A stretch of DNA of 64,000 nt from Parcubacteria group bacterium Gr01-1014_38 (lineage in GTDB: Bacteria > Patescibacteriota > Andersenbacteria > UBA10190 > CAIZMI01). A program made the translations under genes and the position numbers. The notes beneath the pieces are model-generated. The model saw only the letters and a list, made by a program, of their open reading frames with translations. It was not told where the DNA came from and ran no database searches. The DNA lies in the NCBI GenBank assembly GCA_007376145.1, contig VMFP01000002.1, forward strand, positions 8,679 through 72,678, given 5' to 3'. This document shows positions 1-62,782 of the stretch, piece after piece; the first letter of the stretch is position 1; the number at the start of each line of letters is the position of its first letter.

Positions 1-940
1 CGGCTCCGAGACGCTCCATGCCGCGGATAAAGCCGAAGAGGATATTGCCCGTGCCGAGCGGCAGGATGATGTAGACCTTCGCCGATGCCTTGCCCGTCTT
101 TCCCAGCTCATCCCGCAAAAACGTGAGGCACTGCTGCGCCAGGAGAGAGTACATAAAGATGCCCACACCGTCCCAGCCATCGGTGACCTGCCAGTGTCCT
201 TCCCGTTCAATCCTCTCGCCCGCCATGGCAGCGACCACGTTGTAGAGCTGCTCCCGTGACAGGATCGCGCCGGCACCTGTGGAGATGGAGGTCACTCGGC
301 AATAGGGACCGCGCAGCTCCATCCTCATGTCGAGAGGCGTGGAAGCATCCACCAGGCAGTAGACCGTTTTCCGTTTTTTGGGCGGCACTGTGGCGTTCCA
401 GCGTTTGACCAGCTTCGCCAGGCTGAGTCCGGCGTTGCCGGCCGTCCAGAGTGCCAGGTGCTGAACGTCATGCTCGATCGCTTGAGAGAGCACCGCCCAC
501 GAGCGGAGGTCTTTGTGGGTGCCGGACCAGGTGTACGGGGACATATCCAAAACCCATGTTCCCCCAAGGCCCGAAAAGCGAGCCAGGTGCTCCATTTCGA
601 AGAGCGCCGGCTGGCCGCAAGGAACATGCAGCTTGGCCTGGAACAATTCTTTGAGCGCATCTCTGGGTTCCTTGAGACGGCCGCGTGACCGGAGTAGGAG
701 GTCTCTGCATCCATATTGAAGTAGTACTTCAGGAATGTCCTTGGCCTCCGGAATAATCGTGACGAAGCTCGAAGCCAGTTCAGCTTCTGCGATGGGACTG
801 AAGAATTCATGGCTCCGGTAACGGTTCATGCAGGTTGTGCAGAGAGCGTCGTTCGTGCGGTACGGACGCTCGAGCGACTTCCTGCACACCAGGCACCACG
901 CTTGCCAGTTCTCGTTGAACTCGAATCCCAATTCAGCCAT
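1..940 (-). CDS. PLP-dependent threonine synthase-like enzyme with an N-terminal CxxC...CxxC zinc ribbon. Only the 5' part is in the window; the gene runs off the left edge.
   Basis: My translation of the minus strand from the ATG at 938-940 (preceded by GGAGG) gives MAELGFEFNENWQAWCLVCRKSLERPYRTNDALCTTCMNRY...TWSGTHKDLRS...WTAGNAGLSLA... with no stop down to position 1. SGTHKD resembles the fold-type II PLP lysine motif (TGSFKDR). The track omits this ORF because it is edge-truncated. Confidence 0.55.
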   Translation of the reverse strand, partial: MAELGFEFNENWQAWCLVCRKSLERPYRTNDALCTTCMNRYRSHEFFSPIAEAELASSFVTIIPEAKDIPEVLLQYGCRDLLLRSRGRLKEPRDALKELFQAKLHVPCGQPALFEMEHLARFSGLGGTWVLDMSPYTWSGTHKDLRSWAVLSQAIEHDVQHLALWTAGNAGLSLAKLVKRWNATVPPKKRKTVYCLVDASTPLDMRMELRGPYCRVTSISTGAGAILSREQLYNVVAAMAGERIEREGHWQVTDGWDGVGIFMYSLLAQQCLTFLRDELGKTGKASAKVYIILPLGTGNILFGFIRGMERLGA

Positions 941-12454: not shown

Positions 12455-14203
12455 GTGGCCGAGCAACGAACACCACAATCCGTTGAAGAGATTCTCGTCG
12501 AGTGGGGCTACTTGACGCCAGAGCAGCGTGACGCCCTGCGCGACTTGATGGCGCGGACCGGGAGGACTGCCGATGACCTTCTCTTGTCCGAGCGGTTCGT
12601 TCCGGAGGATCAGTTCGCGCGCGCGAAGGGAGTGCTCCTCGGTATTCCCTACGTGGATTTGCGGCGGACGGCGATTCATCCCGACGCCGTGAAGGAAATT
12701 TCGTTCGAGGCGGCACGGACGTACCAGTTCATCCCTTTTGCCAAGGAGGACAACGTCCTCCATGTGGCGCTCGCGCAGCCGGAAAATTTCCAAGCGCTCG
12801 AAGCGCTGAAGTTTCTCACGAAGAAGTCGGGGCTGAGTACCCAGATTCACATTGCGACCGCGTCCGCAGTGGAAGAGGCACTGTCGAAGTCGCTCGGTGG
12901 TCTCCACGCCGAGGTCGCCACCGCGATTCAGGAATTTTCCCAGGAGGTGGAGGAAGCCGGGCGGTTAGAGAAGCGGGAGGAGCGCGATCTCGAGCGCATT
13001 CTCGAAGAAGCTCCCGCCACGAAGGCGGTAGCCGTGATTATCCGGTACGCCATTGAAGGACGGGCGAGCGACATTCACATCGAGCCTGAGCCGGATAATC
13101 TCCGCATCCGTTTCCGGGTCGACGGTGTGCTCCACACGAGTCTCGTACTTCCCTTGAAAGTGCATAGCGCGATCGCCTCGCGGATTAAGATCTTGAGCAA
13201 CTTGAAAATCGACGAGCAGCGGTTACCGCAGGACGGTCGGTTTTCCACCACGGCGGGCGGACACGAGTACGACTTCCGCGTCTCCGTGATGCCGACGACG
13301 CTTGGCGAGAAAGTGGCGCTCCGCATCCTCGATAAGTCCCAGGGCGCGCTCCCCTTCGAAACGCTCGGCTACCGCGGTCGCCGGAAGGATGATCTCCTCG
13401 CGGCGCTCTCTCGCCCGTACGGACTGTTCCTCATCACGGGGCCGACCGGCTCCGGAAAATCCACCACGCTCTTCACCGCCTTGGATCATTTGAATAAGCC
13501 GGACGTGAACATCGTCACCCTTGAAGACCCCGTGGAGTACCATGTCGCCGGCGTCAACCAGACGCAGGTGAATCCCGATATCGGATTAGCGTTTGCTTCC
13601 GGTCTCCGGAGTATCCTCCGCCAGGACCCGGACATCATCATGGTGGGAGAAATCCGGGACTTAGAGACGGCGGAACTCGCCGTGCACTCCGCTCTCACCG
13701 GACATCTCGTCCTCTCGACCCTCCACACGAACGACGCTGTGGGCGCTGTCCCTCGCCTCCTTGACATGGGCGTTGAGCCGTTTCTCCTCGCGGCTATTCT
13801 CCGGCTGGTAGGCGCGCAGCGGCTCGTCCGTCGGATTTGCCCGCACTGCCGCGTGTCGGTGCCGTTGTCCGACGAGACCCGTGCTATACTAGCCGTGGAA
13901 CTCCGTGACGTACCTACTGTGGAAAAAGCCGAGGAGAACCTCCGCACTCCTTCGACGCTCGCCCAAGGGCAAGGGTGTACCGAGTGCGGGGGGACGGGGA
14001 CAACCGGGAGAATCGCGATCGTGGAAGTGGTCCCCGTGTCCGAGGAATTTCGGAACGCCATCATCCGCCGGGCGTCCCACGATGAGCTGCGGAAGCTCGC
14101 GACGGCGGCCGGGTATCTGACCATGCGACAGGATGGGATTCTGAAAGCGCTGGCGGGTGAGGTGCCCCTCGAGGAAGTGCTCGGCGCCACGTCGGAAGAT
14201 TGA
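12455..14203 (+). CDS. pilB: Type IV pilus assembly ATPase PilB (GspE family)
   Basis: T2SSE N-domain, Walker A GPTGSGKSTT, and a tetracysteine motif CPHC...CTEC. Confidence 0.85.
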   Translation: MAEQRTPQSVEEILVEWGYLTPEQRDALRDLMARTGRTADDLLLSERFVPEDQFARAKGVLLGIPYVDLRRTAIHPDAVKEISFEAARTYQFIPFAKEDNVLHVALAQPENFQALEALKFLTKKSGLSTQIHIATASAVEEALSKSLGGLHAEVATAIQEFSQEVEEAGRLEKREERDLERILEEAPATKAVAVIIRYAIEGRASDIHIEPEPDNLRIRFRVDGVLHTSLVLPLKVHSAIASRIKILSNLKIDEQRLPQDGRFSTTAGGHEYDFRVSVMPTTLGEKVALRILDKSQGALPFETLGYRGRRKDDLLAALSRPYGLFLITGPTGSGKSTTLFTALDHLNKPDVNIVTLEDPVEYHVAGVNQTQVNPDIGLAFASGLRSILRQDPDIIMVGEIRDLETAELAVHSALTGHLVLSTLHTNDAVGAVPRLLDMGVEPFLLAAILRLVGAQRLVRRICPHCRVSVPLSDETRAILAVELRDVPTVEKAEENLRTPSTLAQGQGCTECGGTGTTGRIAIVEVVPVSEEFRNAIIRRASHDELRKLATAAGYLTMRQDGILKALAGEVPLEEVLGATSED

Positions 14204-14236
14204 GGCGATTCACTCATGAGCAGAGGAGAACACCGT

Positions 14237-14626
14237 ATGGCGACATCCAAGGGGAACATCCTCCTCGTCGAAGACGACGCGTTCGTCGCCAGCATGTACC
14301 AGACGAAACTCTCGATGCTCGGATATACCATCCGCGTCGCGAGTGACGGGGAGGAAGGGTGGCGGATGCTCACCTCGGAGCCGCCGGATCTCCTTCTGCT
14401 CGATGTGGTGTTGCCGAAGCGAGACGGGTTTGAAATTCTGGCCGCCGTGCGGAAGGACCCGAAGTTGAAAGATCTTCCCATTCTCCTTCTCACGAACCTG
14501 GGGCAGAAGCCCGACGTGCAGCGGGGTCTCGAGCTCGGCGCGAATGATTACATTATCAAGGCCCACTTCACGCCCTCCGAGGTGGTCGAGAAAATCGAAA
14601 AAGTACTTCGGAAGCGGACATCGTGA
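14237..14626 (+). CDS. Single-domain response regulator (CheY-like receiver, PilH/PilG-like)
   Basis: ILLVEDD...LLLLDVVLPKRDGFEIL...ANDYIIK are receiver-domain motifs, including the phospho-acceptor Asp. Confidence 0.75.
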   Translation: MATSKGNILLVEDDAFVASMYQTKLSMLGYTIRVASDGEEGWRMLTSEPPDLLLLDVVLPKRDGFEILAAVRKDPKLKDLPILLLTNLGQKPDVQRGLELGANDYIIKAHFTPSEVVEKIEKVLRKRTS

Positions 14627-14714
14627 CGCGCCCGTGGCTGACCGGAGGGATCCTTAAAGAAGGCATGGATCAGCGTGGTTCGTCTCTGGCCCGGAGGCGC
14701 ACACGGCGCTCCCG

Positions 14715-15782
14715 ATGAATAGCGGCCCGGCGCCGGAGAAGCTTCTCGCCGAGCTCCTGGCGGAGGTCCTCTCTCTCGGGGCATCCGATTTGCATGTTTC
14801 GGTTGGCCGTCTGCCCATCGTACGGGTCGATGGCGCTCTCCGCGCACTCGAGGGACGCCCGCCGCTCTCGATGGACGACGTCACGAGCATGGTCCAGGTC
14901 GTCATGGGAATCGATCGGTCGCCCCTTTTCTTCACCGAGCGGCGGGAGGTGGACATCGCCTACGATCCGGCGGGCAGCGAGCTTCGCTTTCGCGTGAACG
15001 TCTTTTGGAGTCGCGGGGAACCCACGATTGTGTTCCGCTCCATTCCTCGGGTGATTCGGACGATCCGTGACTTGAACCTTCCCGAAACGCTCCTCCGGTT
15101 CACGGAACCGAGGCAAGGCTTCATCCTCTTGGCCGCTCCGTCCGGTCATGGGAAGACCACGACCATGGCGACGCTCGTGGATCACATCAACCACACGCGA
15201 TCGGACCACATCATCACCATCGAGGATCCTGTCGAGTACGTCTTCACCGAAGTGCGTTCATTGATCCACCAGCGGGAGGTAGGATCGGATGCGCGGTCGT
15301 TTCCCGCTGCGATCCGCGCCGCGCTCCGCGAAGACCCGAACGTGGTGGTTATTGGGGAGATGCGCGATCTCGAGACCATCGCCACCGCCCTGACCGTTTC
15401 CGAAACCGGCCACCTCGTGTTTGGCACCATTCACACGAACGACGCCGCGCAGACGATCGACCGTATCCTCGACGCCTTTCCGGCGGAGCGCCAGGCGGAA
15501 GTCCGCGTGCAACTCGCGGCCACGCTCACCGGGATCGTTTCCCAGCGTCTGGTGCCCCGTGCCTCGGGCGGGCGGATCCCCATCGTGGAAATCCTTGCCG
15601 CCACTCCGGCGGTGCGGAACCTCATTCGGGAGGGGGAAACCGCGCAGATCCCCGGTCTTATTCAGACCGGCGCAGAGTACGGCATGATCTCACTCGAGCG
15701 GTCGGTCGCCGAGCTCCTGCGCCGGGGTGAGGTGACCCCCGATAGTATTCGACCATACCTGCCCACGCTTCCTCCCCCGTGA
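14715..15782 (+). CDS. pilT: Twitching motility ATPase PilT
   Basis: Walker A APSGHGKTTT and the PilT family motifs (HINHTRSDHIITIEDPVEY, GEMRDLETI). Confidence 0.85.
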   Translation: MNSGPAPEKLLAELLAEVLSLGASDLHVSVGRLPIVRVDGALRALEGRPPLSMDDVTSMVQVVMGIDRSPLFFTERREVDIAYDPAGSELRFRVNVFWSRGEPTIVFRSIPRVIRTIRDLNLPETLLRFTEPRQGFILLAAPSGHGKTTTMATLVDHINHTRSDHIITIEDPVEYVFTEVRSLIHQREVGSDARSFPAAIRAALREDPNVVVIGEMRDLETIATALTVSETGHLVFGTIHTNDAAQTIDRILDAFPAERQAEVRVQLAATLTGIVSQRLVPRASGGRIPIVEILAATPAVRNLIREGETAQIPGLIQTGAEYGMISLERSVAELLRRGEVTPDSIRPYLPTLPPP

Positions 15783-15863
15783 GATCAATCGCGCTTCTTG
15801 GCGCGCTCGCCCGCGGAGGCTCTGTGCTACACTGAACTGAAACTACGCACATCAATATCTCCC

Positions 15864-17072
15864 ATGCCCGAGTACTACTACCGCGCGCGCACCCGCCTCG
15901 GCCACGTCACGAAAGGAACGGTCAGAGCCGCAACCCCCGAACGCGCGAGCGAAATGCTCGCGGGACACGGTCTCGCGCCTTTGGAACTCCAGGATGTCCG
16001 CGAGCTCCGGTTCTGGAAGCGGGAACTGAAGTTCGGCGGGGTCCGGATCCGCGATCGGGCGATCTTCGCACGCGAACTCGCCACGATGATTGAAGCGGGA
16101 ATCCCCATTCTCCAGGCGCTGCGCATTCTCGCCCAGCAGACGGAGAGCGTTCGACTCGCGGATATTCTCCGCAACGTGAGTTACGAGGTGGAAGGCGGCA
16201 GTCCGCTGAGCAATGCGTTGGAGAAGTACCCGCGCGCCTTTTCGGATTTCTTTATCAGCATGGTGCGCTCGGGTGAAGCGAGTGGGCAGGTGTCCCGATC
16301 GCTCCAGGCGCTGGCGGAACACGAGGAGCGGGACGCGGAGCTCATCCGGAAAGTTCGTACCGCGCTCCTGTACCCCGCCTTTGTCTTCACCGTGATGATC
16401 GTGCTCGTGCTCGTCATGGCGAACTTCGTCATGCCCCAACTGACCGATCTGTTCCGGGAAGCCAACGTGTCGCTCCCCTTCATGACCCGACTGCTTCTCG
16501 GTATGACGTTCCTCTTCCAGGCCTACTGGTGGTTCGTGCTCATCTTCCTCGGCATCGCGGGGACCATCGTGTTCAACTATCTCCGGACTCCCGAGGGACG
16601 GTACAACGCCAGCGCCTTTGTCCTCCGTCTTCCAATCTTGAGCACGCTCTTAAGGAAACTGTACCTCGCGCGATTCTCCGGGGCTCTCCAAACCCTGCTC
16701 GAAGCAGAGGTGCCGGTGGTCCGCGCGCTCCTCATCGCCCGGGATGTTCTCGCCAATCGCGTCTACCAGGAGATCATCGATCGGACAGCGGAGGACGTGA
16801 AAAACGGGAGCACGATTTCCCAAGCGTTCGAGCGCTACCCCGATATCCCCCTCATGGTGTCCGCCATTGTGGGCGTTGGCGAACGGAGCGGCCAGCTCGG
16901 TCAGGCCTTTGGGAACATCCATCGCTTTTACCGGCGCGACGTGGATGACGCGCTCGGCAACCTGACGGCGCTCATTGAACCGGTGGTCATTGTCGTGATC
17001 GGCGTTGGGGTGGCGTTCCTTCTCGCCGCTGTCCTTCTCCCGCTCTACGGGCTTGTCCAAGTCATTACCTGA
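15864..17072 (+). CDS. pilC: Type IV pilus platform protein PilC (GspF family)
   Basis: Two GspF repeats and three TM segments. Start at MPEYYYRAR. Confidence 0.8.
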   Translation: MPEYYYRARTRLGHVTKGTVRAATPERASEMLAGHGLAPLELQDVRELRFWKRELKFGGVRIRDRAIFARELATMIEAGIPILQALRILAQQTESVRLADILRNVSYEVEGGSPLSNALEKYPRAFSDFFISMVRSGEASGQVSRSLQALAEHEERDAELIRKVRTALLYPAFVFTVMIVLVLVMANFVMPQLTDLFREANVSLPFMTRLLLGMTFLFQAYWWFVLIFLGIAGTIVFNYLRTPEGRYNASAFVLRLPILSTLLRKLYLARFSGALQTLLEAEVPVVRALLIARDVLANRVYQEIIDRTAEDVKNGSTISQAFERYPDIPLMVSAIVGVGERSGQLGQAFGNIHRFYRRDVDDALGNLTALIEPVVIVVIGVGVAFLLAAVLLPLYGLVQVIT

Positions 17073-17087
17073 TCGGCAGTCAGCGTA

Positions 17088-17096
17088 TGGTATACT
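17088..17096 (+). promoter_or_regulatory. Extended -10 element TGGTATACT upstream of the pilin gene. Strong SD GGAAAGGGGGTG at 17150-17164.
   Basis: Sequence inspection only. No clear -35. Confidence 0.35.
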
Positions 17097-17167
17097 CTCT
17101 GGCACATACCAACAGCCAACACATGCGTCTGACGGCCGATGGTCTTAAGGAAAGGGGGTGAGCGCGG

Positions 17168-17650
17168 ATGAACATCAGGCATTTTCGTCTCCAGCGCGGA
17201 TTCACCCTCATCGAACTCCTCGTGGTCATTGCGATCATCGGGATTCTCGCGACGCTGATTCTGGTCGCCTTGAACGCCGCCCGCTCGCGGGCACGCGATG
17301 CCCGCATCGTCTCGAACTTGGAACAGGCCTTCACTGTCTGCACGCTCCGCAATGACGTGGACGGCGATTACCGGAACTGCAAGGTGGATGACTCAAATGT
17401 TACGGAAGAAGCCGGTGCCATTGCTCGATTGCACGCGGACACCCAGCGGATTGACGGGATCGGTGGCGCTTCGGACGGTGGGATCACCCTTTCCTTGCCG
17501 ACCGGTAACAGCAAGGTCTGCTTGCTCGTGACGCTGAACGCGAAGACCGGAACCGCCAACAAGAAGTTCTGCCGCGACGGTGAAGGGAACATAAGTCCGA
17601 CGGTCGGATCGGCGTCTGCCGCCTGCGGCGCAGGCGTCTGTACGCCCTGA
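17168..17650 (+). CDS. pilA: Type IV major pilin
   Basis: Prepilin leader MNIRHFRLQRG/FTLIELLVVIAIIGILA with the class III signal and a C-terminal Cys pair. Confidence 0.8.
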   Translation: MNIRHFRLQRGFTLIELLVVIAIIGILATLILVALNAARSRARDARIVSNLEQAFTVCTLRNDVDGDYRNCKVDDSNVTEEAGAIARLHADTQRIDGIGGASDGGITLSLPTGNSKVCLLVTLNAKTGTANKKFCRDGEGNISPTVGSASAACGAGVCTP

Positions 17651-17674: not shown

Positions 17675-18463
17675 ATGTGGCGTATCGGCGCATTGCTTGC
17701 TGGCGCCATCGTCGGCAGTTTCCTCACCACCGTCATTGAGCGTCTCCCCTTGGAGGAACAGTTCCTCCGGGGGAGATCGCGTTGTGCGCGGTGCGGGATG
17801 CGGCTGACGCCGCGCGACCTGGTTCCCCTCTTCAGCTTCCTGACATCGCGCGGTCATTGTCGCCACTGCGGAGCCCCGATTCCTTGGTGGCACCTGGCGG
17901 TGGAGGTTGCGACACCAGTGCTCTTCATCCTCGCCGTCGCCCTCTCTCCGAATCCGTCCCTCGTCGATCAGCTCTCTCGGTGGATGCTTCTGGCCCTGCT
18001 TCTCGCGCTGACGGTCATCGATCTCCGCACCTTGCAGTTGCCCGATTCCCTCGTTGCGGCGACGGCGGTCGTCGGTGCCCTCCGCAGTCTGGCGCTCCAG
18101 CATCCTCCGTTTCCGGACGCGGTGCTCGGCGGGTCTGTCGGGCTTTTTCTCATCGGTCTTCTGGCTCTGCTCCCGTGGCGCCGCGCGATCAACGGCGCCG
18201 ACCGTGCCCCCACCACCGCCATGGGCCTGGGCGACGCGAAGCTGGCCGGCGCGATGGGGCTCACGCTTGGTCTGCAGGGGCTCCTCGCCGCCCTCTTGGT
18301 CGCGTTTGTTGCCGGCGGTCTCGTGGCTGGCCTGCTTCTGCTCTCCAAGCGCGCAACGTTGAAAAGCCGCATCCCGTTCGGGCCGTTCCTCGCGGGGGCC
18401 ACGGCGCTTCTCCTCGTGGTTCGAGAGCTCCCGGAAATCTTTTTCCGTCTCGCGGGGTTTTGA
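17675..18463 (+). CDS. pilD: Prepilin peptidase (A24 family) PilD
   Basis: N-terminal Cys cluster CARCG...CRHCG and multiple TM helices with the catalytic Asp motif GLGDAKL. Confidence 0.8.
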   Translation: MWRIGALLAGAIVGSFLTTVIERLPLEEQFLRGRSRCARCGMRLTPRDLVPLFSFLTSRGHCRHCGAPIPWWHLAVEVATPVLFILAVALSPNPSLVDQLSRWMLLALLLALTVIDLRTLQLPDSLVAATAVVGALRSLALQHPPFPDAVLGGSVGLFLIGLLALLPWRRAINGADRAPTTAMGLGDAKLAGAMGLTLGLQGLLAALLVAFVAGGLVAGLLLLSKRATLKSRIPFGPFLAGATALLLVVRELPEIFFRLAGF

Positions 18464-18493
18464 CCTAGAATACGTCGGAGGACGCACCCGGAC

Positions 18494-19129
18494 ATGACAC
18501 GGAAACTCCAGGATCCCGCGGGGTTCACCCCGTTACAAGCCCTTGAAGGAACATCTCGGAGAGATGTTCCTTCACGAGTCTTCCGAGGGGTGGGTCGGCC
18601 CAACACGGTGAGCGGTGCCAAGCCTTCGGATGTTCCTGACAGGCTTGTAACGGGGTTCACCTTTCTCGAGGTCCTCGTGAGTGCATTTATCCTCGCGCTG
18701 GTTTCGACGATCATCCTCCTCGGCGCTGCGGCCGGGCGGAGAAACGCCATTGTCCGGAGTTCCGCCCAGCAGATCGCGGGCTTCCTCCGCGAGACCGGCG
18801 GGCTCGCCTTGAACGGGGTGAAGGCCGCGAACTGCGACCCTGCGAATGTCGACTGCTCTCGGTACTTGGTGATCTTTGGCCCGTCCGGCCGGAAGAGCGA
18901 ATACGTCCGCCGGGCCGTGGGTGGAGGAACGGAGGTCCGGTCCGTCCTCCCCGCAGGCGCCGTGTTTCCCGTCACCGAGCAGGAAGTCCGGTTCGCGTAC
19001 ACCCCTCCGACGCTCACCGCGACCGCGGCCGCGATCGCTCTCGAGCACACGACGGGAGTCCCGCGGTGGTGGGTGTGCGTGACGAGTCTCGGGGGCGTCG
19101 AGGTGCATACCGGAAGTTGCCCCCCATGA
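18494..19129 (+). CDS. Minor pilin/pseudopilin with an unusually long leader. An alternative GTG start lies at ~18609.
   Basis: The GFTFLEVLVSAFILALV prepilin motif is preceded by ~60 aa in the ATG-initiated ORF. The GTG at 18609 would give a 15-aa leader. Confidence 0.5.
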   Translation: MTRKLQDPAGFTPLQALEGTSRRDVPSRVFRGVGRPNTVSGAKPSDVPDRLVTGFTFLEVLVSAFILALVSTIILLGAAAGRRNAIVRSSAQQIAGFLRETGGLALNGVKAANCDPANVDCSRYLVIFGPSGRKSEYVRRAVGGGTEVRSVLPAGAVFPVTEQEVRFAYTPPTLTATAAAIALEHTTGVPRWWVCVTSLGGVEVHTGSCPP

Positions 19130-19767
19130 GCGGACATTCGTCCCGTACCCGAGATTTCGTTCGCCCGAGCGGCTTCACGCTCCTTGGCGTCCTCATCTCC
19201 GCGCTCTTCATTGTGCTCGTCGTGTCCGGCTTGGCGCTCACGGCCCAGCGCACCGGACAAGCCGCGCGCGCCACGAAGGAGCGGATGTTGGCGACGATGC
19301 TCGCACGGGAAGGCGTCGAGCTCGTGCGCGCCATCCGGGATAATAACTGGCTGTCCACCCCGCGCTGTCCGACGACCGGTCGGTGCGAGATCTACTGGCG
19401 GGGACAGGCCTCTGGACCCGGCGCGATCTGTAACGGGACCTTCCGCATTGATGCGGATAATCTCCAACTCGTTCCCGCGTCGGCCGGGAGCGAGGGGACA
19501 CGCCTGTCGCTCGTCGGGACGAGGTACCACCACGGCGGCGGCACGCCAACGCCGTTCCGGCGTTGGGTGATCATCGCGTCACCCGAGGGGGGATGCGGGG
19601 AGCCCTCCGTCTTTGTGCCGAACCCCTCGCCGGCGTCGCGGCCTCCGCAGCCGTTCGTCGCCCGCGTGATCGTCGTGTGGGACGTGCGGATGGAGGCGGA
19701 CTGCACGCCGGGCCGTCACTGCGTTGAGCTCCGCGAGGACTTGTACCCCTGGATGAACTTCCGATGA
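19126..19767 (+). CDS. Minor pilin/pseudopilin
   Basis: Leader MSGHSSRTRDFVRPSG/FTLLGVLISALFIVLVV. It overlaps the upstream gene's stop. Confidence 0.6.
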   Translation: MSGHSSRTRDFVRPSGFTLLGVLISALFIVLVVSGLALTAQRTGQAARATKERMLATMLAREGVELVRAIRDNNWLSTPRCPTTGRCEIYWRGQASGPGAICNGTFRIDADNLQLVPASAGSEGTRLSLVGTRYHHGGGTPTPFRRWVIIASPEGGCGEPSVFVPNPSPASRPPQPFVARVIVVWDVRMEADCTPGRHCVELREDLYPWMNFR

Positions 19768-20312: not shown

Positions 20313-22801
<2,489 letters not shown>

Positions 22802-22879
22802 GACGTGGTTACCCAAAAGACGGGGCACAGCCGCGCGCTCTGGTCGCGCGGCCCACGCTATGCCAAAGTAGAGGACGTC

Positions 22880-23173
22880 ATGGGTGCCGGCAGTCAGCCA
22901 CGTTCGCTCGTTCCGCAGATTGCGGATTTGGCGCGGTTGGCACTGACCGATGACGAGGAGAAACGCTTGTCCTTGGAATTCCAGAGGATTGTCGAGTACG
23001 TCGATCAGGTACAAAAGGTCCAGGCTCCCGCCGAACCCCTGACCGCCACGATCAGTGGCGTGCGTCAGGTGCTGCGCGACGACGCGGTCACGTCGTCACC
23101 TCTCGCCGACGCGTTACTTCACTGCTCCCCGGAGACGGAACAGCGGCACGTACGTGTTCCGCCGGTGCTTTAA
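22880..23173 (+). CDS. gatC: Glu-tRNA(Gln)/Asp-tRNA(Asn) amidotransferase subunit C
   Basis: IADLARLALTDDEEKRLSLEFQRIVEYVDQV is the GatC signature. Internal ATG start at 22880; the track ORF starts at 22805. Confidence 0.75.
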   Translation: MGAGSQPRSLVPQIADLARLALTDDEEKRLSLEFQRIVEYVDQVQKVQAPAEPLTATISGVRQVLRDDAVTSSPLADALLHCSPETEQRHVRVPPVL

Positions 23174-23177
23174 GGCT

Positions 23178-24629
23178 ATGCCGTCCGTTATCCGCGACCT
23201 TCATGAGCGGCTCCTCCGGCGCGAGACGACTGCGGAGGGGCTCCTCGATCAATCGCTCGCCGCGATTCGGGACAAGGACGAGACGCTCCACAGCTTTCTC
23301 CACGTCGCGGAGGACACCGCGCGGGCTGCGGCGCGGCGTGCGGATGAGGAGTTTCAGGCGGGACGCGAAGAACTTCCGCTCCTCGCGGGTATTCCGTGCG
23401 CCATTAAAGACATGATCTGCGTGGCGGGGCTCCCGGCCACTGCGGGCTCCCGGGTCCTCGACGGCTTCGTGCCGCCCTACGACGCCACAGTCATCGAACG
23501 GCTGAAGGATCACGACGCGGTCATTGTTGGGAAAACAAATCTCGACGAGTTTGCGATGGGCTCAAGCACGGAGCACTCGGCGTTTGGGCCGACCCGGAAC
23601 CCGTATGACGAGGCCTTGGTTCCGGGAGGGTCGTCGGGTGGCAGTGCCGCTGCCGTCGCTGCGAACCTCGTGCCGTACGCTCTCGGGACCGACACGGGTG
23701 GGTCCATCCGTCAACCCGCGAGCTTCTGCGGCGTCGTGGGACTCAAGCCAACATACGGGCGAGTGAGCCGATACGGGATGATTGCGTTCGCGAGTTCGTT
23801 TGACCAGGCCGGACCACTCACCCGGACGGTGGAGGATGCCGCCATCGTCTACGAAGCGATTGCCGGAGAGGACCCCAGGGACGGAACGACGCTCCCAGGA
23901 TCTGTTCCCTCCGTCCGCGCTGCGCTCGAGGCAGGGGTCCAGGGGCTCCGTCTCGGCGTTCCCGAGGAGTACTTCGCCGAAGAAGGAGTCGATCCAAACG
24001 TTGCTCGGACTGTCCGTCACGCCCTTGGGGTGCTGGCCGGTCTCGGCGCCGAGGTGAGAGAGGTTTCCCTGCCACTCACCGGCGTGGCGCTCGCGGTGTA
24101 CTACATTCTTGCCACCGCGGAGGCGAGCACGAACCTCGCCCGATATGACGGTGTTCGCTTTGGCCGTCGCGTGCCGGGGAGAACGCTCGATGACGTGTAC
24201 CGGCGGACGCGGGGAACGGGATTCGGTGCCGAAGTGAAGCGGCGCATTCTCCTGGGCACCTTTGCCCTGTCCGCCGGATACGCCGACCAGTACTACCGAA
24301 AAGCCGCGGCAGTACGGCAAGCGATTGCGCGAGAGTACGCACAGGCGTTTGAGACCGTGGACATTCTCCTTTCTCCCGCCACGCCCGAAGTCGCATTCCG
24401 AATCGGCGAGAAGCTTCAAGATCCTCTCCGGATGTACGCATCGGATATTCTCTCCGTTCCGATGAATGTCGCGGGCGCCCCCGCCCTGGTGGTGCCCTGT
24501 GGTTCGGTGGACGGGCTCCCCGTCGGGCTCCAAATCATTGCACCCCTCGGCCGCGAAGATCTGCTCTTCCGTGTCGGCGCTGCGTATGAGCGGAGGAGAT
24601 CGGAGACGGAGGGGAAGAAAGATCCGTGA
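23178..24629 (+). CDS. gatA: Glu-tRNA(Gln) amidotransferase subunit A
   Basis: Amidase signature GGSSGGSAAAVA and the catalytic Ser-cisSer-Lys context. Starts 4 nt after the gatC stop. Confidence 0.9.
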   Translation: MPSVIRDLHERLLRRETTAEGLLDQSLAAIRDKDETLHSFLHVAEDTARAAARRADEEFQAGREELPLLAGIPCAIKDMICVAGLPATAGSRVLDGFVPPYDATVIERLKDHDAVIVGKTNLDEFAMGSSTEHSAFGPTRNPYDEALVPGGSSGGSAAAVAANLVPYALGTDTGGSIRQPASFCGVVGLKPTYGRVSRYGMIAFASSFDQAGPLTRTVEDAAIVYEAIAGEDPRDGTTLPGSVPSVRAALEAGVQGLRLGVPEEYFAEEGVDPNVARTVRHALGVLAGLGAEVREVSLPLTGVALAVYYILATAEASTNLARYDGVRFGRRVPGRTLDDVYRRTRGTGFGAEVKRRILLGTFALSAGYADQYYRKAAAVRQAIAREYAQAFETVDILLSPATPEVAFRIGEKLQDPLRMYASDILSVPMNVAGAPALVVPCGSVDGLPVGLQIIAPLGREDLLFRVGAAYERRRSETEGKKDP

Positions 24630-24777
24630 TGCCGTTTTGGCCCAGCGCCCCGGTGTGGTATGTTCCGTGTACCACCGTGCGGCGATCTGCCTTTCTCTAT
24701 CAGGGGGACGGAAGCACGCCCGTGCCGCTCTGGGCAGCAGATCGTCATGAGCGTCGCGGACCCCGCGCACCGGCGGC

Positions 24778-26205
24778 ATGAACCGATCGGACCCCGTGCA
24801 TACGTGGCGAGAAGCGAGCGACGCATTCTTTTTGGCGGTTCTGCTGATCGCTGTTGTTTCTGTTGCCGGGTCTGTCCTCACCTTAACCAGATTTTCGCAG
24901 GATCTCGGACCGGTGAGTGCAACGGCAACTCCGGAGAATGGCGGTCCACCGCCGCCCCCGCCACCTCCACCGCCCCCGCCTCCACCACCGCCTCCCCCGC
25001 CACCTCCACCGCCCCCGCCTCCACCACCTCCACCCATCGGTGGGCCGCCACCGCCCCCACCGATTGGTGGTCCGCCCCCGCCTATCGGGGGTCCTCCGCC
25101 ACCGCCGATTGGCGGGCCCCCACCGCCAGACGGCATCGTGCCGCCACCGGTCGGCGTCGGGCCTCCCCAACCTCTTCCGGGGCCGTTCGCCACGGCGCCG
25201 TTCACCGCGTCTTCGGTGATCACTGCTCTCGGTCCTGGCAGGCGGCCTATGCTCAACGTTGCGGCGTTCGTCGCCGTCGTGGCGGCGACGCTCACTGCCG
25301 CGAGTACCGCGCTTCTTGCTGCTGCCGCTCTTCCCGGGGGCTTCGTCAGCCTCCCCCAATCGCTCTTCCCTTTTCTTGCCTTGCATCGTCCCCGCCGGTC
25401 TTGGGGTCGGATCGTCGAGGAGCGCACGAACCTTCCGGTGGCGGGCGCCGTCGTCACGATCCTCGATATGTCAGGAAAGCCGCGGGAGACCGTCTCTTCC
25501 CGGAGCGACGGCACCTTTGGAGCGCTCCTTCCTCGCGGTTCCTATCAGCTCTCCATGCAGCACACCGACTTCGCGTTCACGAGCGCGCCAGAAGGCGTCG
25601 TGCTTTTTCCGGAAGAGCGACTCTACACGGGCGGGTTCCTCCGGGTGGAAGACGAGGAGCAGATGGTGCCCGCGCTTTCCCTCGTCATCGGTATGAGACC
25701 CACCCGGGTCCGACGCCAAGTCCTCCGGGGCGCCTTCCGTTCCTTCCTGGAGCGCCTTCGGGTCCTTCAGGCTCGTCTCGCTCTTCCCGTCCTTCTCACC
25801 GGTGCCGCAATCAATTCTGTCGCTCTCGTGCTGAATCCCACCCCTCTCCTCGTGAGCTACGAGATTCTCTACGGTGTCTTCCTCACCTTTGAGCTTCTCC
25901 TCTCCCGCGTCGCCCGCCGCGCCCTCGGACGCGTCCGCGACGCTGTGACGCGCAGCCGTGTGGGTCTTGCCGTCGTCCGCCTCATGGATATGAAGACGCG
26001 GCGCCTCGTGGAGACCCGCGTCACCTCGTCTCGCGGAAGCTTCCTCTTGATGCCCCCGCCCGGGCGGTACCGCCTGCAGGTGGCTCACGCCGCCTACACT
26101 CCCTACACGAGCGATCTCCTCCGCATCGGCCGTGGAAGAACGAGTGCCGTCCGCCTGAACGTGGACCTGGAGCCCGGAAGCATGGCCGGGGCGCAGGCGA
26201 TCTGA
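24778..26205 (+). CDS. Membrane-anchored surface protein with a 30-residue polyproline run, IGGPPPP repeats and two CarboxypepD_reg-like beta-sandwich repeats
   Basis: N-terminal TM FFLAVLLIAVVSVAGSVL. DNA 24946-25035 encodes 30 consecutive Pro. Downstream segments VAGAVVTILDMSGKP...DGTF and VGLAVVRLMD...RGSF resemble carboxypeptidase regulatory-like domains. Confidence 0.6.
   Translation: MNRSDPVHTWREASDAFFLAVLLIAVVSVAGSVLTLTRFSQDLGPVSATATPENGGPPPPPPPPPPPPPPPPPPPPPPPPPPPPPPIGGPPPPPPIGGPPPPIGGPPPPPIGGPPPPDGIVPPPVGVGPPQPLPGPFATAPFTASSVITALGPGRRPMLNVAAFVAVVAATLTAASTALLAAAALPGGFVSLPQSLFPFLALHRPRRSWGRIVEERTNLPVAGAVVTILDMSGKPRETVSSRSDGTFGALLPRGSYQLSMQHTDFAFTSAPEGVVLFPEERLYTGGFLRVEDEEQMVPALSLVIGMRPTRVRRQVLRGAFRSFLERLRVLQARLALPVLLTGAAINSVALVLNPTPLLVSYEILYGVFLTFELLLSRVARRALGRVRDAVTRSRVGLAVVRLMDMKTRRLVETRVTSSRGSFLLMPPPGRYRLQVAHAAYTPYTSDLLRIGRGRTSAVRLNVDLEPGSMAGAQAI
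24946..25182 (+). repeat. Low-complexity CCN-repeat DNA encoding poly-Pro/IGGPPPP on the + strand and poly-Gly on the - strand
   Basis: Seen directly in the sequence. Confidence 0.9.
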
Positions 26206-26223: not shown

Positions 26224-27819
26224 TCAGAGCAGACTGGCGAGGAGACTCTGCGCCGTCATCTCCGGGGGTTTGGGAAGACCAAGAATTTCCACGACGGTCG
26301 GGCCAACGTCCGCCAGTACACCGATCGGCGTACCAAGAATCCGGAAAAGCGCCTCGTCGGTTTTCGGCGGATTCTGCTGATTCTGCGACGCGAGGTAGGC
26401 GAGGGGGACCGGATTGACAGAGTGGTCGGTCACGACCGCTCCGGTCTGCGGGTTCCGCATTTCCTCCGCGTTCCCGTGGTCGCAGGTGAGGAGCACAGCA
26501 CCGCCCGCCGAAAGCGCGGCGCTGACCACCCGCGGGAGTTGCGTGTCGAGGAATCGGAGCGCTTCCACCGCTGCCTCAAAGTTTCCTGTGTGCCCGAGCA
26601 TGTCCGGGTTCGCGTAGTTCATGACGATGACGTCGTACTTCCCCTTCGCGATTTCCCCGACCACCTGGTCGGTGATCGCTTCGGCGCTCATGCGGGGTGT
26701 TTCCACATACTCTTTCACGTTCGGCGAGGGGACGAGGATCCGGTCCTCGTTCGGGAAGGGCAGCTCGCGCCCGCTGTTGAAATAGTACGTCACGTGGGCG
26801 TACTTCTCCGTTTCCGCAACGCGGAGCTGGCGGAGTCCGTGGTCGGCAATCACGCGGCCGACCGGCATATCCATCCACTCTTCGGGGAAGGCGACGGTGA
26901 CCGGGAGACCCTTCTCGTACTCTGCCATGGTGATGAAGGCAAGGTCGGCGAACGGCACCGCCTTGAACCTACCGAAGTTCTTCGCCACGAACGCATGCGT
27001 CAGCTGGCGCGCGCGGTCGGGGCGGAAGTTAAAGAACAGAATCGCATCACCATCGCGGATGGTACGCACAGGCCCGTTGTCTGTGATGACCGAGGGCGGG
27101 ACAATTTCGTCCGTTTTGCGACTCTCGTACGCAGCCTCCAGCGCCTCCTGCCAGGACCGGTACGGGGTGCCGGTCCCCGAGACGAGAAGATCGTAGGCGG
27201 CGCGGGTGCGGTCCCAATTGTTATTGCGATCCATCGCGTAGTACCGCCCGATGAGCGTCGCGATGCGCCCCGCCCCCGTCCGGCGAATCGTCTTATCCAC
27301 GTCGACCAAGTACTGTCCCGCACTCACCGGCGGCGCATCGCGCCCATCGAGGAAGGCATGGATGAACGTCTGCTTCCCGATCCCCTGCTGGGCGGCGAAT
27401 TCGAGAAGGGCCAGGAGATGCTGGAGGTGACTGTGGACACCCCCGGGGGAGACGCACCCCATGAGGTGGAGCACCGAACCCGGTCGCTCCTTCACGTGCG
27501 CGGAGGCCTCCTGGAATGCCACGTTCTGAAAGAACGTGCGGTCTTGGATGGCAAGGGTGATCTGCGGGAGCGGCTGGTAGATCACGCGTCCGGAGCCGAT
27601 GTTCTTGTGGCCGACTTCGGAATTGCCCACCTCTCCCCAGGGCAACCCAACCTCGATGCCCGCAGCGCGAATTGCCGCGCAGGGGTAAGTGCGGAGGTAG
27701 TTCTGGAGGTTCGTCATTTGCGCCGCGAGGACCGCGTTTCCCTCCTGAAAGAAGGAAATCCCAAACCCATCAAGAATCATGAGAACGAGCGGTCGCGGGC
27801 GCGATGCGGGACTGGCCAT
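26224..27819 (-). CDS. gpmI: 2,3-bisphosphoglycerate-independent phosphoglycerate mutase
   Basis: LVLMILDGFG, EVGHKNIGSGR and other iPGM motifs. Start taken at MASPASRP (27819) rather than the track's 27960. Confidence 0.85.
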   Translation of the reverse strand: MASPASRPRPLVLMILDGFGISFFQEGNAVLAAQMTNLQNYLRTYPCAAIRAAGIEVGLPWGEVGNSEVGHKNIGSGRVIYQPLPQITLAIQDRTFFQNVAFQEASAHVKERPGSVLHLMGCVSPGGVHSHLQHLLALLEFAAQQGIGKQTFIHAFLDGRDAPPVSAGQYLVDVDKTIRRTGAGRIATLIGRYYAMDRNNNWDRTRAAYDLLVSGTGTPYRSWQEALEAAYESRKTDEIVPPSVITDNGPVRTIRDGDAILFFNFRPDRARQLTHAFVAKNFGRFKAVPFADLAFITMAEYEKGLPVTVAFPEEWMDMPVGRVIADHGLRQLRVAETEKYAHVTYYFNSGRELPFPNEDRILVPSPNVKEYVETPRMSAEAITDQVVGEIAKGKYDVIVMNYANPDMLGHTGNFEAAVEALRFLDTQLPRVVSAALSAGGAVLLTCDHGNAEEMRNPQTGAVVTDHSVNPVPLAYLASQNQQNPPKTDEALFRILGTPIGVLADVGPTVVEILGLPKPPEMTAQSLLASLL

Positions 27820-27925
27820 GAGTGTCAGTATAGCTGCTCGCCTAAGGGGGGCTTGTCCGGACCCGCCCTGTGCGCTATGCTCGATCTGTCCCTGGGGTAT
27901 GCCCCTTGGACCACAGAACAACCGA

Positions 27926-28000
27926 CGCCGGGTGGAGAAGTGGCATCTCGCCAGGCCCATAACCTGGAGATCGCGGGTTCAAATCCCGCCCCGGCCACCA
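27926..28000 (+). tRNA. tRNA-Met (CAT) with initiator-like features: unpaired C1:C72 and A11:U24
   Basis: Acceptor CGCCGGG/CCCGGCC, D-arm GAGA-AGTGGCA-TCTC, anticodon stem-loop CCAGG-CCCATAA-CCTGG, T-arm GCGGG-TTCAAAT-CCCGC, discriminator A plus CCA. Coordinates are +/-1 because of a one-base inconsistency between the displayed text and the ORF track. Confidence 0.7.
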
Positions 28001-28165: not shown

Positions 28166-28240
28166 GGCTGGGTAGCTCAGTGGCAGAGCATCGCACTCAT
28201 AAGGCGAAGGTCGTGGGTTCGATCCCCACCCCAGCTACCA
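28166..28240 (+). tRNA. tRNA-Met (CAT), elongator type (could alternatively be tRNA-Ile2 decoded via lysidine)
   Basis: Acceptor GGCTGGG/CCCAGCT (G1.U72), D-arm GCTC-AGTGGCA-GAGC (C11:G24), anticodon loop CTCATAA, T-arm GTGGG-TTCGATC-CCCAC, encoded CCA. Confidence 0.8.
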
Positions 28241-30791: not shown

Positions 30792-31472
30792 ATGCGACTC
30801 TCTTCACGTCCTGTTGAAACCTTTTTCCAAACCTGGACGCCGGAAATGGCGTATGTCCTCGGGTATTTTGCCGCCGATGGTTATATGTACCGCAATCCAC
30901 GCGGGTCACATTATGTCGGCTTCGTCTCCACTGATGAGGAACTTGTCCGTCTGGTCCGGTCGCTGATCGGCACCTTGAACAGCATCGAGGTTTACCGGCC
31001 AAAGAATAAAAACTGGAAGACCCGATACACGCTGCAGGTTGGAAGTCGGAAGATTTTTGAAACACTCAGTGATCTCGGATTTTCTCCCGCTAAGAGCCTC
31101 ACGGTGTCCTTTCCGCTTGTTCCCCTTTCCGTGTTATCGCACTTCGTCCGAGGATATTTTGACGGTGATGGGTGTTTGTCCTTCGGCACCTATGCGCGAA
31201 AGAACCGGAAAAGCAAAGCACAAGTCCTGTTCGCACGGTTCATCAGCGGCAGCGAGTATTTCCTCAAGGGTTTGCAGTCTGCTCTCCTGCTCGGGGAAAT
31301 CGGTCCGGGATCACTGGGACACCACGGGAAAAATTTTCGTCTTCAGTACGGGATGCACGATTCGTTCCGCCTATACAAATTGATGTATCCGACTTATGCT
31401 GTTCCCTGCCTTCTCCGAAAGCGAGAGAAATTCGAGCGAGGCCTCGTAGTAATGTCCGGGCCGGTCGTCTAG
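30792..31472 (+). CDS. LAGLIDADG homing endonuclease (two-motif, monomeric type)
   Basis: Motif 1 LGYFAADGYMY and motif 2 VRGYFDGDGCLSF at the typical ~100-aa spacing. The stop codon TAG (31470-31472) lies inside tRNA-Asp. Confidence 0.7.
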   Translation: MRLSSRPVETFFQTWTPEMAYVLGYFAADGYMYRNPRGSHYVGFVSTDEELVRLVRSLIGTLNSIEVYRPKNKNWKTRYTLQVGSRKIFETLSDLGFSPAKSLTVSFPLVPLSVLSHFVRGYFDGDGCLSFGTYARKNRKSKAQVLFARFISGSEYFLKGLQSALLLGEIGPGSLGHHGKNFRLQYGMHDSFRLYKLMYPTYAVPCLLRKREKFERGLVVMSGPVV

Positions 31473-31535
31473 CCTGGTTCAAGACGCCTCCTTGTCAAGG
31501 AGGAGACCACGGGTTCAAATCCCGTCCGGCCCGCC
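31457..31535 (+). tRNA. tRNA-Asp (GTC)
   Basis: Acceptor GGGCCGG/CCGGCCC, D-arm GTCT-(11-nt loop)-AGAC, anticodon stem-loop CCTCC-TTGTCAA-GGAGG, T-arm ACGGG-TTCAAAT-CCCGT, discriminator G plus CCA. Confidence 0.85.
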
Positions 31536-31540
31536 AGAGT

Positions 31541-61969: not shown

Positions 61970-62782
61970 GTGAGAAACATTTCGTGGTATGGTGACGAGG
62001 TGCGGAGGCGGCTTCGAAAACAGCTCACCGTCGTTGCCGTGCTGGCAGCAGGACTTGGAGGCCTCATCGCCCTCGTCGTCGTGATCGTGTATGAGCCTCC
62101 TCCTCCTCCTCCGCCTCCCCCGCCGTCGTACCAAGATCTTGTCGTCCGCAGTGCCGGGCTGCTCCGCCAGGATTCCGGCGACCGCGCGGACCTCTATGCG
62201 ATCGTGCGGAATCCGAACGCGAATGCAGGCGTGCGCGCCGTGGACTACGCCTTCGAAGTGCGCGCTCAAGGACAGTCGGTGGCGCGGATCCCTGGGAGAA
62301 CATACTTCATGCCCGGTCAGGAGAAACCCATCGTGGCGCTGTATGAGACTGTGCCACCGGGAGGCAGGGAAGTCACGATCAATGTTGGGACTCCCGATTG
62401 GGTCGCCGTGGAACCGGGCTTTCGGCCTCCATCCTTCGTTCCGGTGAGCCGCACGGCTGCGGTCCGCGAGGGACAACCGCCGCTCTACGAGGTCAAGGCG
62501 GTCCTTGCGAATGAATCAACACTCGATTATTTGACCGTCGAAGTCACCGCCCTCGGTCTCGATGCCGACGGAGCCATCATCGGTGCGGGACGCACCTTCG
62601 TCGGTTCGCTCCGCTCCGGAGAGCGACGGGAGTTGACCGTGTCCTGGCCGCTCCCTCCCGGACGGGAGGTCAAAGAGGTTCGGCTCATCCCCGAGGTCAA
62701 CGTATTCTCAAAAGCCGCTGTCCAGCCACGTCCGGGCATTCCGGGGTTAGAACCACGGCCGACGAGCGCGCCGCGCCAATGA
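61970..62782 (+). CDS. Membrane-anchored protein with a 10-Pro linker and a beta-rich ectodomain. Hypothetical.
   Basis: GTG start gives MRNISWYGDEVRRRLRKQLTVVAVLAAGLGGLIALVVVIVYEPPPPPPPPPPSY. The track ORF's 5' end overlaps dnaE. Confidence 0.4.
   Translation: MRNISWYGDEVRRRLRKQLTVVAVLAAGLGGLIALVVVIVYEPPPPPPPPPPSYQDLVVRSAGLLRQDSGDRADLYAIVRNPNANAGVRAVDYAFEVRAQGQSVARIPGRTYFMPGQEKPIVALYETVPPGGREVTINVGTPDWVAVEPGFRPPSFVPVSRTAAVREGQPPLYEVKAVLANESTLDYLTVEVTALGLDADGAIIGAGRTFVGSLRSGERRELTVSWPLPPGREVKEVRLIPEVNVFSKAAVQPRPGIPGLEPRPTSAPRQ

Follow-up and report, generated by a model that had tools for sequence, protein, structure and literature searches.

The 64,000-nucleotide stretch of contig VMFP01000002.1 analyzed here, hereafter the window, comes from Parcubacteria group bacterium Gr01-1014_38, a bacterium of the Candidate Phyla Radiation (CPR). 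Between gatA and gpmI the window carries a gene for a 475-residue polytopic membrane protein in which a run of 30 consecutive prolines (P30) lies between the first and second of four hydrophobic helices. The features of this locus, with the transmembrane (TM) helices numbered from the N-terminus, are as follows.

24778–26205, forward strand: full open reading frame (ORF) of Gr01-1014_38, encoding the 475-residue polytopic membrane protein
24826–24888, forward strand: TM1, residues 17–37, probably a signal anchor with its N-terminus inside and its C-terminus outside; Kyte-Doolittle peak 2.71
24889–25248, forward strand: Pro-rich segment between TM1 and TM2, residues 38–157, 51% Pro, predicted to be extracytoplasmic
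24946–25035, forward strand: 30-Pro tract, residues 57–86, made of 2.3 copies of a 39-nucleotide (13-codon) unit
25036–25128, forward strand: four IGG-P(4-6) repeats, residues 87–117, with periods of 21 and 27 in Tandem Repeats Finder
25249–25251, forward strand: internal ATG encoding Met158, the start in the NCBI annotation, which gives a 318-residue product
25255–25335, forward strand: TM2, residues 160–186, Ala/Thr-rich, predicted from hydrophobicity, AlphaFold and charge statistics
25399–25701, forward strand: predicted β-sandwich 1, CarboxypepD_reg/transthyretin-like, residues ~208–308 (Pfam, AlphaFold, Foldseek)
25780–25902, forward strand: predicted TM3–TM4 helical hairpin, residues 335–375, with an uncharged NPTP turn (hydrophobicity, AlphaFold, charge)
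25921–26169, forward strand: predicted β-sandwich 2, CarboxypepD_reg, residues ~382–464 (Pfam, AlphaFold, Foldseek)
23562–25514, reverse strand: antisense 650-residue poly-Gly ORF that overlaps gatA; not a gene

A preliminary description of this DNA, made from the sequence alone, had reported 30 consecutive prolines encoded by 90 nucleotides of CCN codons and followed by IGG-proline repeats. Both are confirmed, the former at nucleotides 24946–25035 and the latter as four units in which runs of 6, 4, 5 and 4 prolines are separated by IGG. The tract is written in mixed codons (10 CCA, 9 CCG, 6 CCT and 5 CCC), and prolines make up 62 of the 121 residues (51%) of the predicted extracytoplasmic segment. 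Counting overlapping matches, (CCN)10 occurs 22 times in the window, 21 times within the 30-Pro tract and once at 62096, and it is found in 0 of 100 dinucleotide-preserving shuffles. Tandem Repeats Finder and self-comparison reveal the tract to be a tandem duplication whose two full 39-nucleotide copies are 38/39 identical.

That the length of the tract might be an artefact, a repeat collapsed or expanded during assembly, is a concern that the preliminary description itself had raised. The tract does interrupt short-read assemblies, those of close relatives as well as the Logan one: the contig of the closest relative (L001, 90% identity) ends inside the proline region, and the k=31 Logan contig of run SRR8863434 begins inside the tract, at the second 39-nucleotide copy. 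An independent ENA assembly (MEGAHIT, k139, a 36-kb contig), however, matches the window base for base, beginning upstream of the start codon and continuing across the whole tract. Because the 90-nucleotide tract and its flanks fit within one 139-mer, the exact tract must occur in the reads, which makes it unlikely that the assembler collapsed or expanded the repeat. With two assemblies in agreement at every base and mixed codons that make the tract non-homopolymeric, we consider an artefact of length extremely improbable. Copy-number heterogeneity of the tract within the population is possible. A scan of JGI metagenomes with an alignment of five orthologues found no relatives.

The public record holds a shorter protein. 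Residues 158–475 are 100% identical to an NCBI protein of the same organism (P0001; taxid 2017185), and because the NCBI model begins at Met158, the record lacks both TM1 and the proline tract. If this annotation were right, TM1 and the tract would be an untranslated low-complexity spacer, and it can be said for this view that NCBI, ENA and Logan gene calls begin at Met158 or its equivalent in several contigs and that translation of 30 prolines is costly (PMC12856214). The related loci, however, point the other way. Orthologues share the context ligA-gatC-gatA-[X]-gpmI, and in each orthologue and paralogue examined (L003, L002, L128, P0015 and L131) the frame is open from a conserved start across the TM1 and proline region. 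The L003 orthologue has 490 residues and its ATG overlaps the gatA stop codon; the frame of the L002 orthologue stays open; the protein at L128 (P0003, 496 residues) is called in its full-length form by PGAP; the P0015 orthologue has 583 residues; and L131 contains three tandem paralogues, each an in-frame long ORF with the shared N-terminal helix. In the 90%-identical relative, the frame 5′ of the annotated Met remains in register up to the contig end.

The N-termini so exposed share the pattern ...W(K/R)E(L/A)S(D/H)xF(F/L)LA...V(S/A)V(T/A)GSV..., with ten positions in the TM1 region invariant in five orthologues (W10, E12, S14, F17, L19, L22, V29, G31, S32 and V33). Relative to the L003 paralogue, the TM1 segment differs at 8, 5 and 19 first, second and third codon positions, respectively, which amounts to 14 synonymous and 10 non-synonymous codon changes, that is, conservation at the protein level with many synonymous changes. 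The short calls, moreover, come together with evidently spurious antisense poly-Gly calls. Longest-ORF gene calling selects the antisense 650-residue ORF at 23562–25514 (−), which the preliminary description had rejected as a gene; we uphold that rejection, and similar antisense fragments are mis-called over the proline regions of related contigs, namely in L002 (1224–1466, −), L003 (4654–4962, −) and L131 (4330–4933, 5968–6396 and 7907–8224, −). The open frames and the conserved TM1 speak against a frameshift that makes the region non-coding, the other doubt voiced in the preliminary description. From these sequence comparisons we take the 475-residue form to be the gene and the shorter public model to be truncated; an untranslated spacer is quite unlikely, and the 30-Pro tract sits in a genuine gene at 24778–26205 (+).

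Both the N-terminal membrane anchor and the two carboxypeptidase-regulatory-like repeats of the preliminary description are borne out. The hydrophobic segment 17–37 lies within an AlphaFold helix spanning residues 6–42, and CarboxypepD_reg (PF13620) is matched with 62.8 bits, against a cut-off of 32.3, over two stretches (~210–281 and 384–463). Structure prediction, which had been suggested as a check on the C-terminal repeats, gives two sandwiches of the seven-strand transthyretin-like fold, both with a predicted local distance difference test score (pLDDT) above 90. Foldseek matches both to transthyretin-like and CnaB domains, and the match to 5aq0, the transthyretin-like domain of carboxypeptidase D, has a TM-score of 0.87 and a root-mean-square deviation of 2.2 Å. 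The two halves are also related to each other, the sandwich 2 half aligning with the juxtamembrane segment and sandwich 1 (35% identity over 77 residues, E=9e-8).

Three further helices (160–186, 335–353 and 357–375) had been missed. With 17–37 they are the hydrophobic segments of the protein, and the AlphaFold helices lie at 6–42, 156–183 (plus the short 188–201), 315–352 and 356–378. The order within residues 158–475 is TM2, a PGG sequence, the amphipathic helix 188–201, a WGR(V/I) basic cluster (here the basic motif HRPRRSWGR), sandwich 1, an amphipathic basic helix, the TM3-NPTP-TM4 hairpin, a second basic cluster (SRVARRALGRV) and sandwich 2.

We found that this C-terminal part, from TM2 through sandwich 1 and the TM3/TM4 hairpin to sandwich 2, is a module shared by many proteins, with the present protein as its founding member. 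An exhaustive hidden Markov model (HMM) search of 1.84 billion representatives yielded 784 matches at E≤1e-30; word-indexed searches returned only ~20 relatives. The whole module is present as a single stretch in 131 of the 165 proteins fetched, and in these 131 it lies at the extreme C-terminus, followed by a median of 9 residues. The N-terminal extensions ahead of it range from 1 to 2563 residues, and the diverse protein clusters that end in it number more than 100. All named members belong to the CPR (Parcubacteria group, Candidatus Andersenbacteria or Patescibacteria group). Long members have signal-peptide-like N-termini and fn3, Big_5, Big_13 or Gly_rich_2 domains. One protein with a signal peptide (P0018; L129 5001–6830) carries seven acidic double-disulfide repeats (NF033662) at the position of the prolines, and the close orthologue P0015 has a PPC-like β domain inserted between two Pro-rich linkers. 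The module is recurrent and unnamed, and it carries very different ectodomains. A single acidic double-disulfide unit of the P0018 kind, CxDGxDNDxDGxxDCxDxxC, is seen in each of P0011–P0013.

Residues conserved in at least 80% of 123 members and present here are W209, G210, G245, F247, G254, Y256, G342, P354, Y365, G384 and D388. The motifs of the module (the basic cluster with WGRV, DGxF, GxY, a Gly in TM3, a Pro in the turn, a Tyr in TM4, and GxVxD) are all found in the 475-residue protein, with I212 at the position of the motif Val (Val in 86%) and R211 outside the columns conserved at ≥80%. Because the conserved residues look structural (Gly, Pro, aromatic and other such residues typical of sandwich motifs) and show no catalytic signature, a catalytic role for the module was set aside. 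No entry for the whole module exists in Pfam, NCBIfam or the PDB; no NCBIfam model matches the 475-residue protein, and a PDB sequence search gave single-domain matches only. Literature searches in Parcubacteria/Patescibacteria gave no pertinent work on either Pro-rich proteins or CarboxypepD_reg, and a preprint on the CPR Pam-pilus proved to be unrelated.

The distribution of charge around the helices bears on how the module is inserted. Across 111 members, the 15 residues on either side of TM2 contain on average 1.5 Lys plus Arg (K+R) on the N-terminal side vs 4.5 on the C-terminal side, and mean K+R is 2.7 before TM3, 0.2 in the TM3–TM4 turn and 3.0 after TM4, a pattern repeated in the 21 closest relatives. 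Together with the signal peptides and the disulfide-rich or Ig-like N-terminal parts of relatives, this bias suggests that whatever precedes TM2 is extracytoplasmic and that both sandwiches are cytoplasmic. Since relatives hold signal-peptide-led ectodomains at the same position, the Pro-rich segment would itself be the extracytoplasmic part.

The reading we prefer, with a probability of roughly 60% on sequence and structural modeling, is that of a four-helix CPR membrane protein in which the Pro-rich segment is an extracytoplasmic rod/loop spacer and both sandwiches are cytoplasmic. The short N-terminus would lie inside, with TM1 crossing outward; the Pro-rich segment, the whole ectodomain of the 475-residue protein, would lie outside; and TM2 would cross back inward. 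The two sandwiches would then be joined in the cytoplasm by the hairpin, whose turn would touch the outer face of the membrane. A polyproline II (PPII) helix rises ~3.1 Å per residue, so P30 would form a rigid rod of ~9 nm, followed by rods of 4–6 prolines with Gly-Gly joints. Tethered at both ends, such a loop or arch may reach ~10–18 nm, into or through the cell wall, and could act as a wall-spanning spacer or as an exposed low-complexity surface element, much as Pro-rich regions do in the surface proteins of Gram-positive bacteria.

Several observations weigh against this reading. CarboxypepD_reg-type sandwiches are usually extracytoplasmic, and a cytoplasmic placement is atypical. No clear difference in charge separates the two flanks of TM1, a helix that could also be cleaved. 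The Kyte-Doolittle hydrophobicity of TM2 is 2.04 here, the family median is 1.81, and 23% of members fall below 1.6. Inspection of the sequence upstream of either start codon revealed no convincing Shine-Dalgarno sequence, and 30 consecutive prolines should strongly stall ribosomes.

Were TM1 a cleaved signal peptide, the Pro-rich segment would be a free N-terminal whisker with a contour length of up to ~35 nm, anchored by TM2 only. Most relatives start with cleavable-looking signal peptides, and a small-residue motif, SVAG|S, lies inside TM1. Its hydrophobic core of 21 residues is, however, long for a signal peptide, its n-region lacks a net positive charge, and its conservation is far above that of usual signal peptides, so that we judge cleavage to be unlikely. 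The sandwiches, for their part, could be extracytoplasmic and tethered by the TM3/TM4 hairpin if the Ala-rich TM2 did not span the membrane or formed a hairpin with helix 188–201. This arrangement would agree with the typical location of CarboxypepD_reg domains, with the moderate hydrophobicity of TM2 and with the internal homology, in which helix 188–201 aligns with the end of TM4. It would also place nine or more Lys/Arg residues outside and none in the sole cytoplasmic turn, and helix 188–201, with ~14 residues, is too short to span and contains Pro, Gln, Glu or Arg in relatives; we regard this arrangement as unlikely.

The preliminary description had proposed a stalk that projects the C-terminal domains away from the membrane, and of this model TM1 and a PPII rod of ~9 nm stand. 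The outward projection of the sandwiches is not supported: TM2 and TM3–TM4 flank them, K+R lies on the predicted cytoplasmic side, and a rod lifting them off the membrane is hard to reconcile with predicted membrane helices beside each sandwich. In its TonB-like form, a single anchor with a polyproline stalk would keep the sandwiches at least ~9 nm away from the membrane. In favor of it, both TM1 and the Pro-rich rod exist, the second window protein discussed below has an anchor-stalk architecture, and TonB uses a PPII spacer (PMC5413942). Against this, the three further hydrophobic helices that flank the sandwiches are predicted by AlphaFold as long helices, a helix end and an Arg-rich motif directly precede each sandwich, and relatives have large signal-peptide ectodomains where the Pro segment lies. 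These features make the single-anchor stalk very unlikely.

The likeness to TonB is nevertheless instructive. In both, a long Pro-rich stretch, expected to be an extended PPII rod across envelope space, comes after a membrane helix (PMC5413942), and the spacer after the anchor is Pro-rich here also (51% over 121 residues). TonB has one TM helix, however, with TonB_C at the end of the rod, and works with ExbBD and the outer membrane; the present protein has four helices, with another TM helix after the rod, and no TonB_C match was found in its 475 residues by Pfam at E≤1. The TonB rod consists of EP/KP repeats, whereas here there is a pure Pro run. CPR bacteria are monoderm and lack an outer membrane.

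Gram-positive LPXTG proteins such as SdrG and M protein also have a Pro-rich segment N-terminal to a helix and a basic cluster (PMC7616799), which in SdrG is a wall-spanning domain (PMC7616799), and in the relatives of the 475-residue protein, as in LPXTG proteins, variable ectodomains precede the Pro segment. In LPXTG proteins a terminal TM helix with a short tail is the anchor, whereas here the anchor is a 320-residue module of three helices and two sandwiches. In the 475-residue protein, moreover, the linker carries no further ectodomain, and the N-terminus is probably anchored in the membrane as well. Its sequence contains no LPXTG motif, and the helix and basic cluster are internal, followed by 270 more residues. 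Other proteins that match PF13620 provide a further comparison: the sandwiches match above the gathering threshold, but here they lie between TM helices and are predicted to be cytoplasmic.

A scan for (CCN)30 in one genome per species across 185,579 species found at least 120 loci. Among the matches listed, 72 consist of poly-C alone, often at the end of a contig, and 48 are mixed-codon loci; 36 mixed-codon runs of 30–231 codons fall within stretches of 250 residues or more that are open in the Pro frame, and the two longest mixed-codon runs, both in L064, are simple-repeat DNA. Also among the listed matches are OmpA-like proteins with hinges of 32–35 prolines and large secreted proteins with linkers of 35–57 prolines. 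The OmpA-family hinges (L038, L042 and L115, each with a β-barrel, 32–35 prolines and an OmpA-like C-terminal domain, and L016) resemble the present tract in having at least 30 prolines from mixed CCN codons, but they link two folded domains in a diderm periplasm, whereas here the run lies between two TM helices in a CPR bacterium. Runs of at least 30 prolines are rare in bacteria, with clear precedent as inter-domain envelope linkers. The Pro rod is thus of a known kind, that of Pro-rich envelope spacers, in an undescribed setting, probably a doubly anchored loop on a CPR-specific module. At loci L006–L125, more than half of the listed (CCN)30 matches are poly-C/poly-G of 90–700 nucleotides, many at contig ends; these matches, several of them in 'ASV' isolate assemblies, look like sequencing or assembly artefacts.

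The TM1–TM2 loop is 121, 141, 131 and 126 residues long in four of the five orthologues and has no sequence conservation; the longest Pro runs in the same four are 30, 11, 5 and 13. In P0015, with its inserted domain, the loop reaches 227 residues and the longest run is 3. The comparison of stalk lengths suggested in the preliminary description was thus carried out, and the runs do vary (30, 13, 11, 5 and 3). In the module family as a whole (fetched proteins), the longest run is also 30, followed by 11 and 10, and the membrane-proximal segments of long members show a modest Pro enrichment (8.3% vs 5.5%, p=4e-4). Loop length is kept while sequence is not, and paralogues diverge; the pattern is therefore that of a fast-evolving, surface-exposed low-complexity element. 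Because the 39-nucleotide copies are nearly identical, the 30 prolines would represent a recent expansion of a run of ~13 and not a tuned length. Judged from the repeat sequence, it was a recent duplication, specific to this lineage, that brought the run to exactly 30, which is not a conserved design.

The interval between gatA and gpmI holds one copy here, two in L003 and three in L131, with the N-terminal helix in common. Tandem paralogues in this interval lie at:

L003, 6146–8533, forward strand
L131, 5868–7763, forward strand
L131, 7846–10029, forward strand

A hydrophobic block rich in Trp (WIFLWIAIFVWLWT...WYWYWLWTWFW) is found in some paralogues, and the one in L003 carries in addition ~200 residues of PGP/PQP repeats ahead of the C-terminal module.

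Compared with eight housekeeping genes of the window, the Pro-rich segment is enriched in the Pro codons CCA and CCT and depleted in CCC (p=0.003, computed after removal of the duplicated copy). An explanation in which codon choice avoids long C homopolymers was considered and is weak (p=0.075). In reviews, a tract of 20 prolines is called "artificially long", and four is given as the longest natural run in B. subtilis (PMC12856214).

A second window protein had been described as repeating the combination of a TM anchor and a 10-Pro stalk.

61997–62782, forward strand: second protein, likely start GTG 61997, with an MRRRLRKQ-type N-terminus, a TM anchor, a stalk of ten prolines (P10) and two tandem β-sandwiches
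62096–62125, forward strand: P10 run of the second protein

The architecture holds, but the start is likely at 61997 and not, as first given, at 61970, since most homologues have 252–262 residues; the NCBI model, with 294 residues, implies a further alternative at ~61898. All 25 homologues share the order MRRRLRKQ, TM, (V/I)YE, P7-10 and (S/T)(Y/F), and with 25/25 following this pattern, the proline spacer of the second protein is conserved at ~10. AlphaFold (pLDDT 89.7) predicts one TM helix, the spacer and two tandem β-sandwiches, which resemble the C-terminal barrels of transglutaminases; a match to FxLYD is weak (22.2 bits vs a cut-off of 23). As far as sequence and model allow, it is this second protein that does fit an anchor, a short rigid stalk and an ectodomain.

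Elsewhere in the window, a type IV pilus-like cluster at 12455–17650 (+) includes a PilB-type ATPase (T2SSE and MshEN), a PilT-type ATPase, a T2SSF platform protein, a pilin with an N-terminal methylation motif and a putative response-regulator-like ORF (14216–14626). A free-standing LAGLIDADG_3 homing-endonuclease-like ORF at 30792–31472 (+) overlaps with its 3′ end the tRNA-Asp gene at 31458–31536 by 15 nucleotides. Two tRNA-Met(CAT) genes lie 165 nucleotides apart at 27926–28000 and 28166–28240 (+), and the longest gpmI ORF (26224–27960, −) has a 5′ extension that runs into the first of them; because of this overlap the true gpmI start would be further downstream, and gpmI homologues have 518–532 residues. 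Two long reverse-strand ORFs, 20837–23014 and 17968–19533 (−), have no Pfam matches and are probably antisense artefacts of the 61% GC content; the former lies where synteny predicts ligA on the forward strand.

Much of bacterial diversity belongs to the CPR, whose members live attached to hosts, yet their surface proteins are almost uncharacterized. Our more tentative proposal is that the module may be a new CPR-specific membrane base for surface proteins that couples variable ectodomains to cytoplasmic partners, for outside-in signaling or mechanical anchoring, and that the gatA-gpmI locus, with its one to three fast-diverging Pro-rich paralogues, might be a hot spot of surface variation in interactions with hosts or phages. 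The 30-Pro tract is in addition a natural extreme case for polyproline translation and its dependence on EF-P in an organism with a reduced translation apparatus. As this locus shows, Pro-rich surface proteins of high-GC CPR genomes are systematically cut short by gene callers, which substitute spurious antisense poly-Gly genes for the proline region, so that signal anchors and ectodomains are overlooked. This recurrent truncation and the unnamed module are the more valuable leads.

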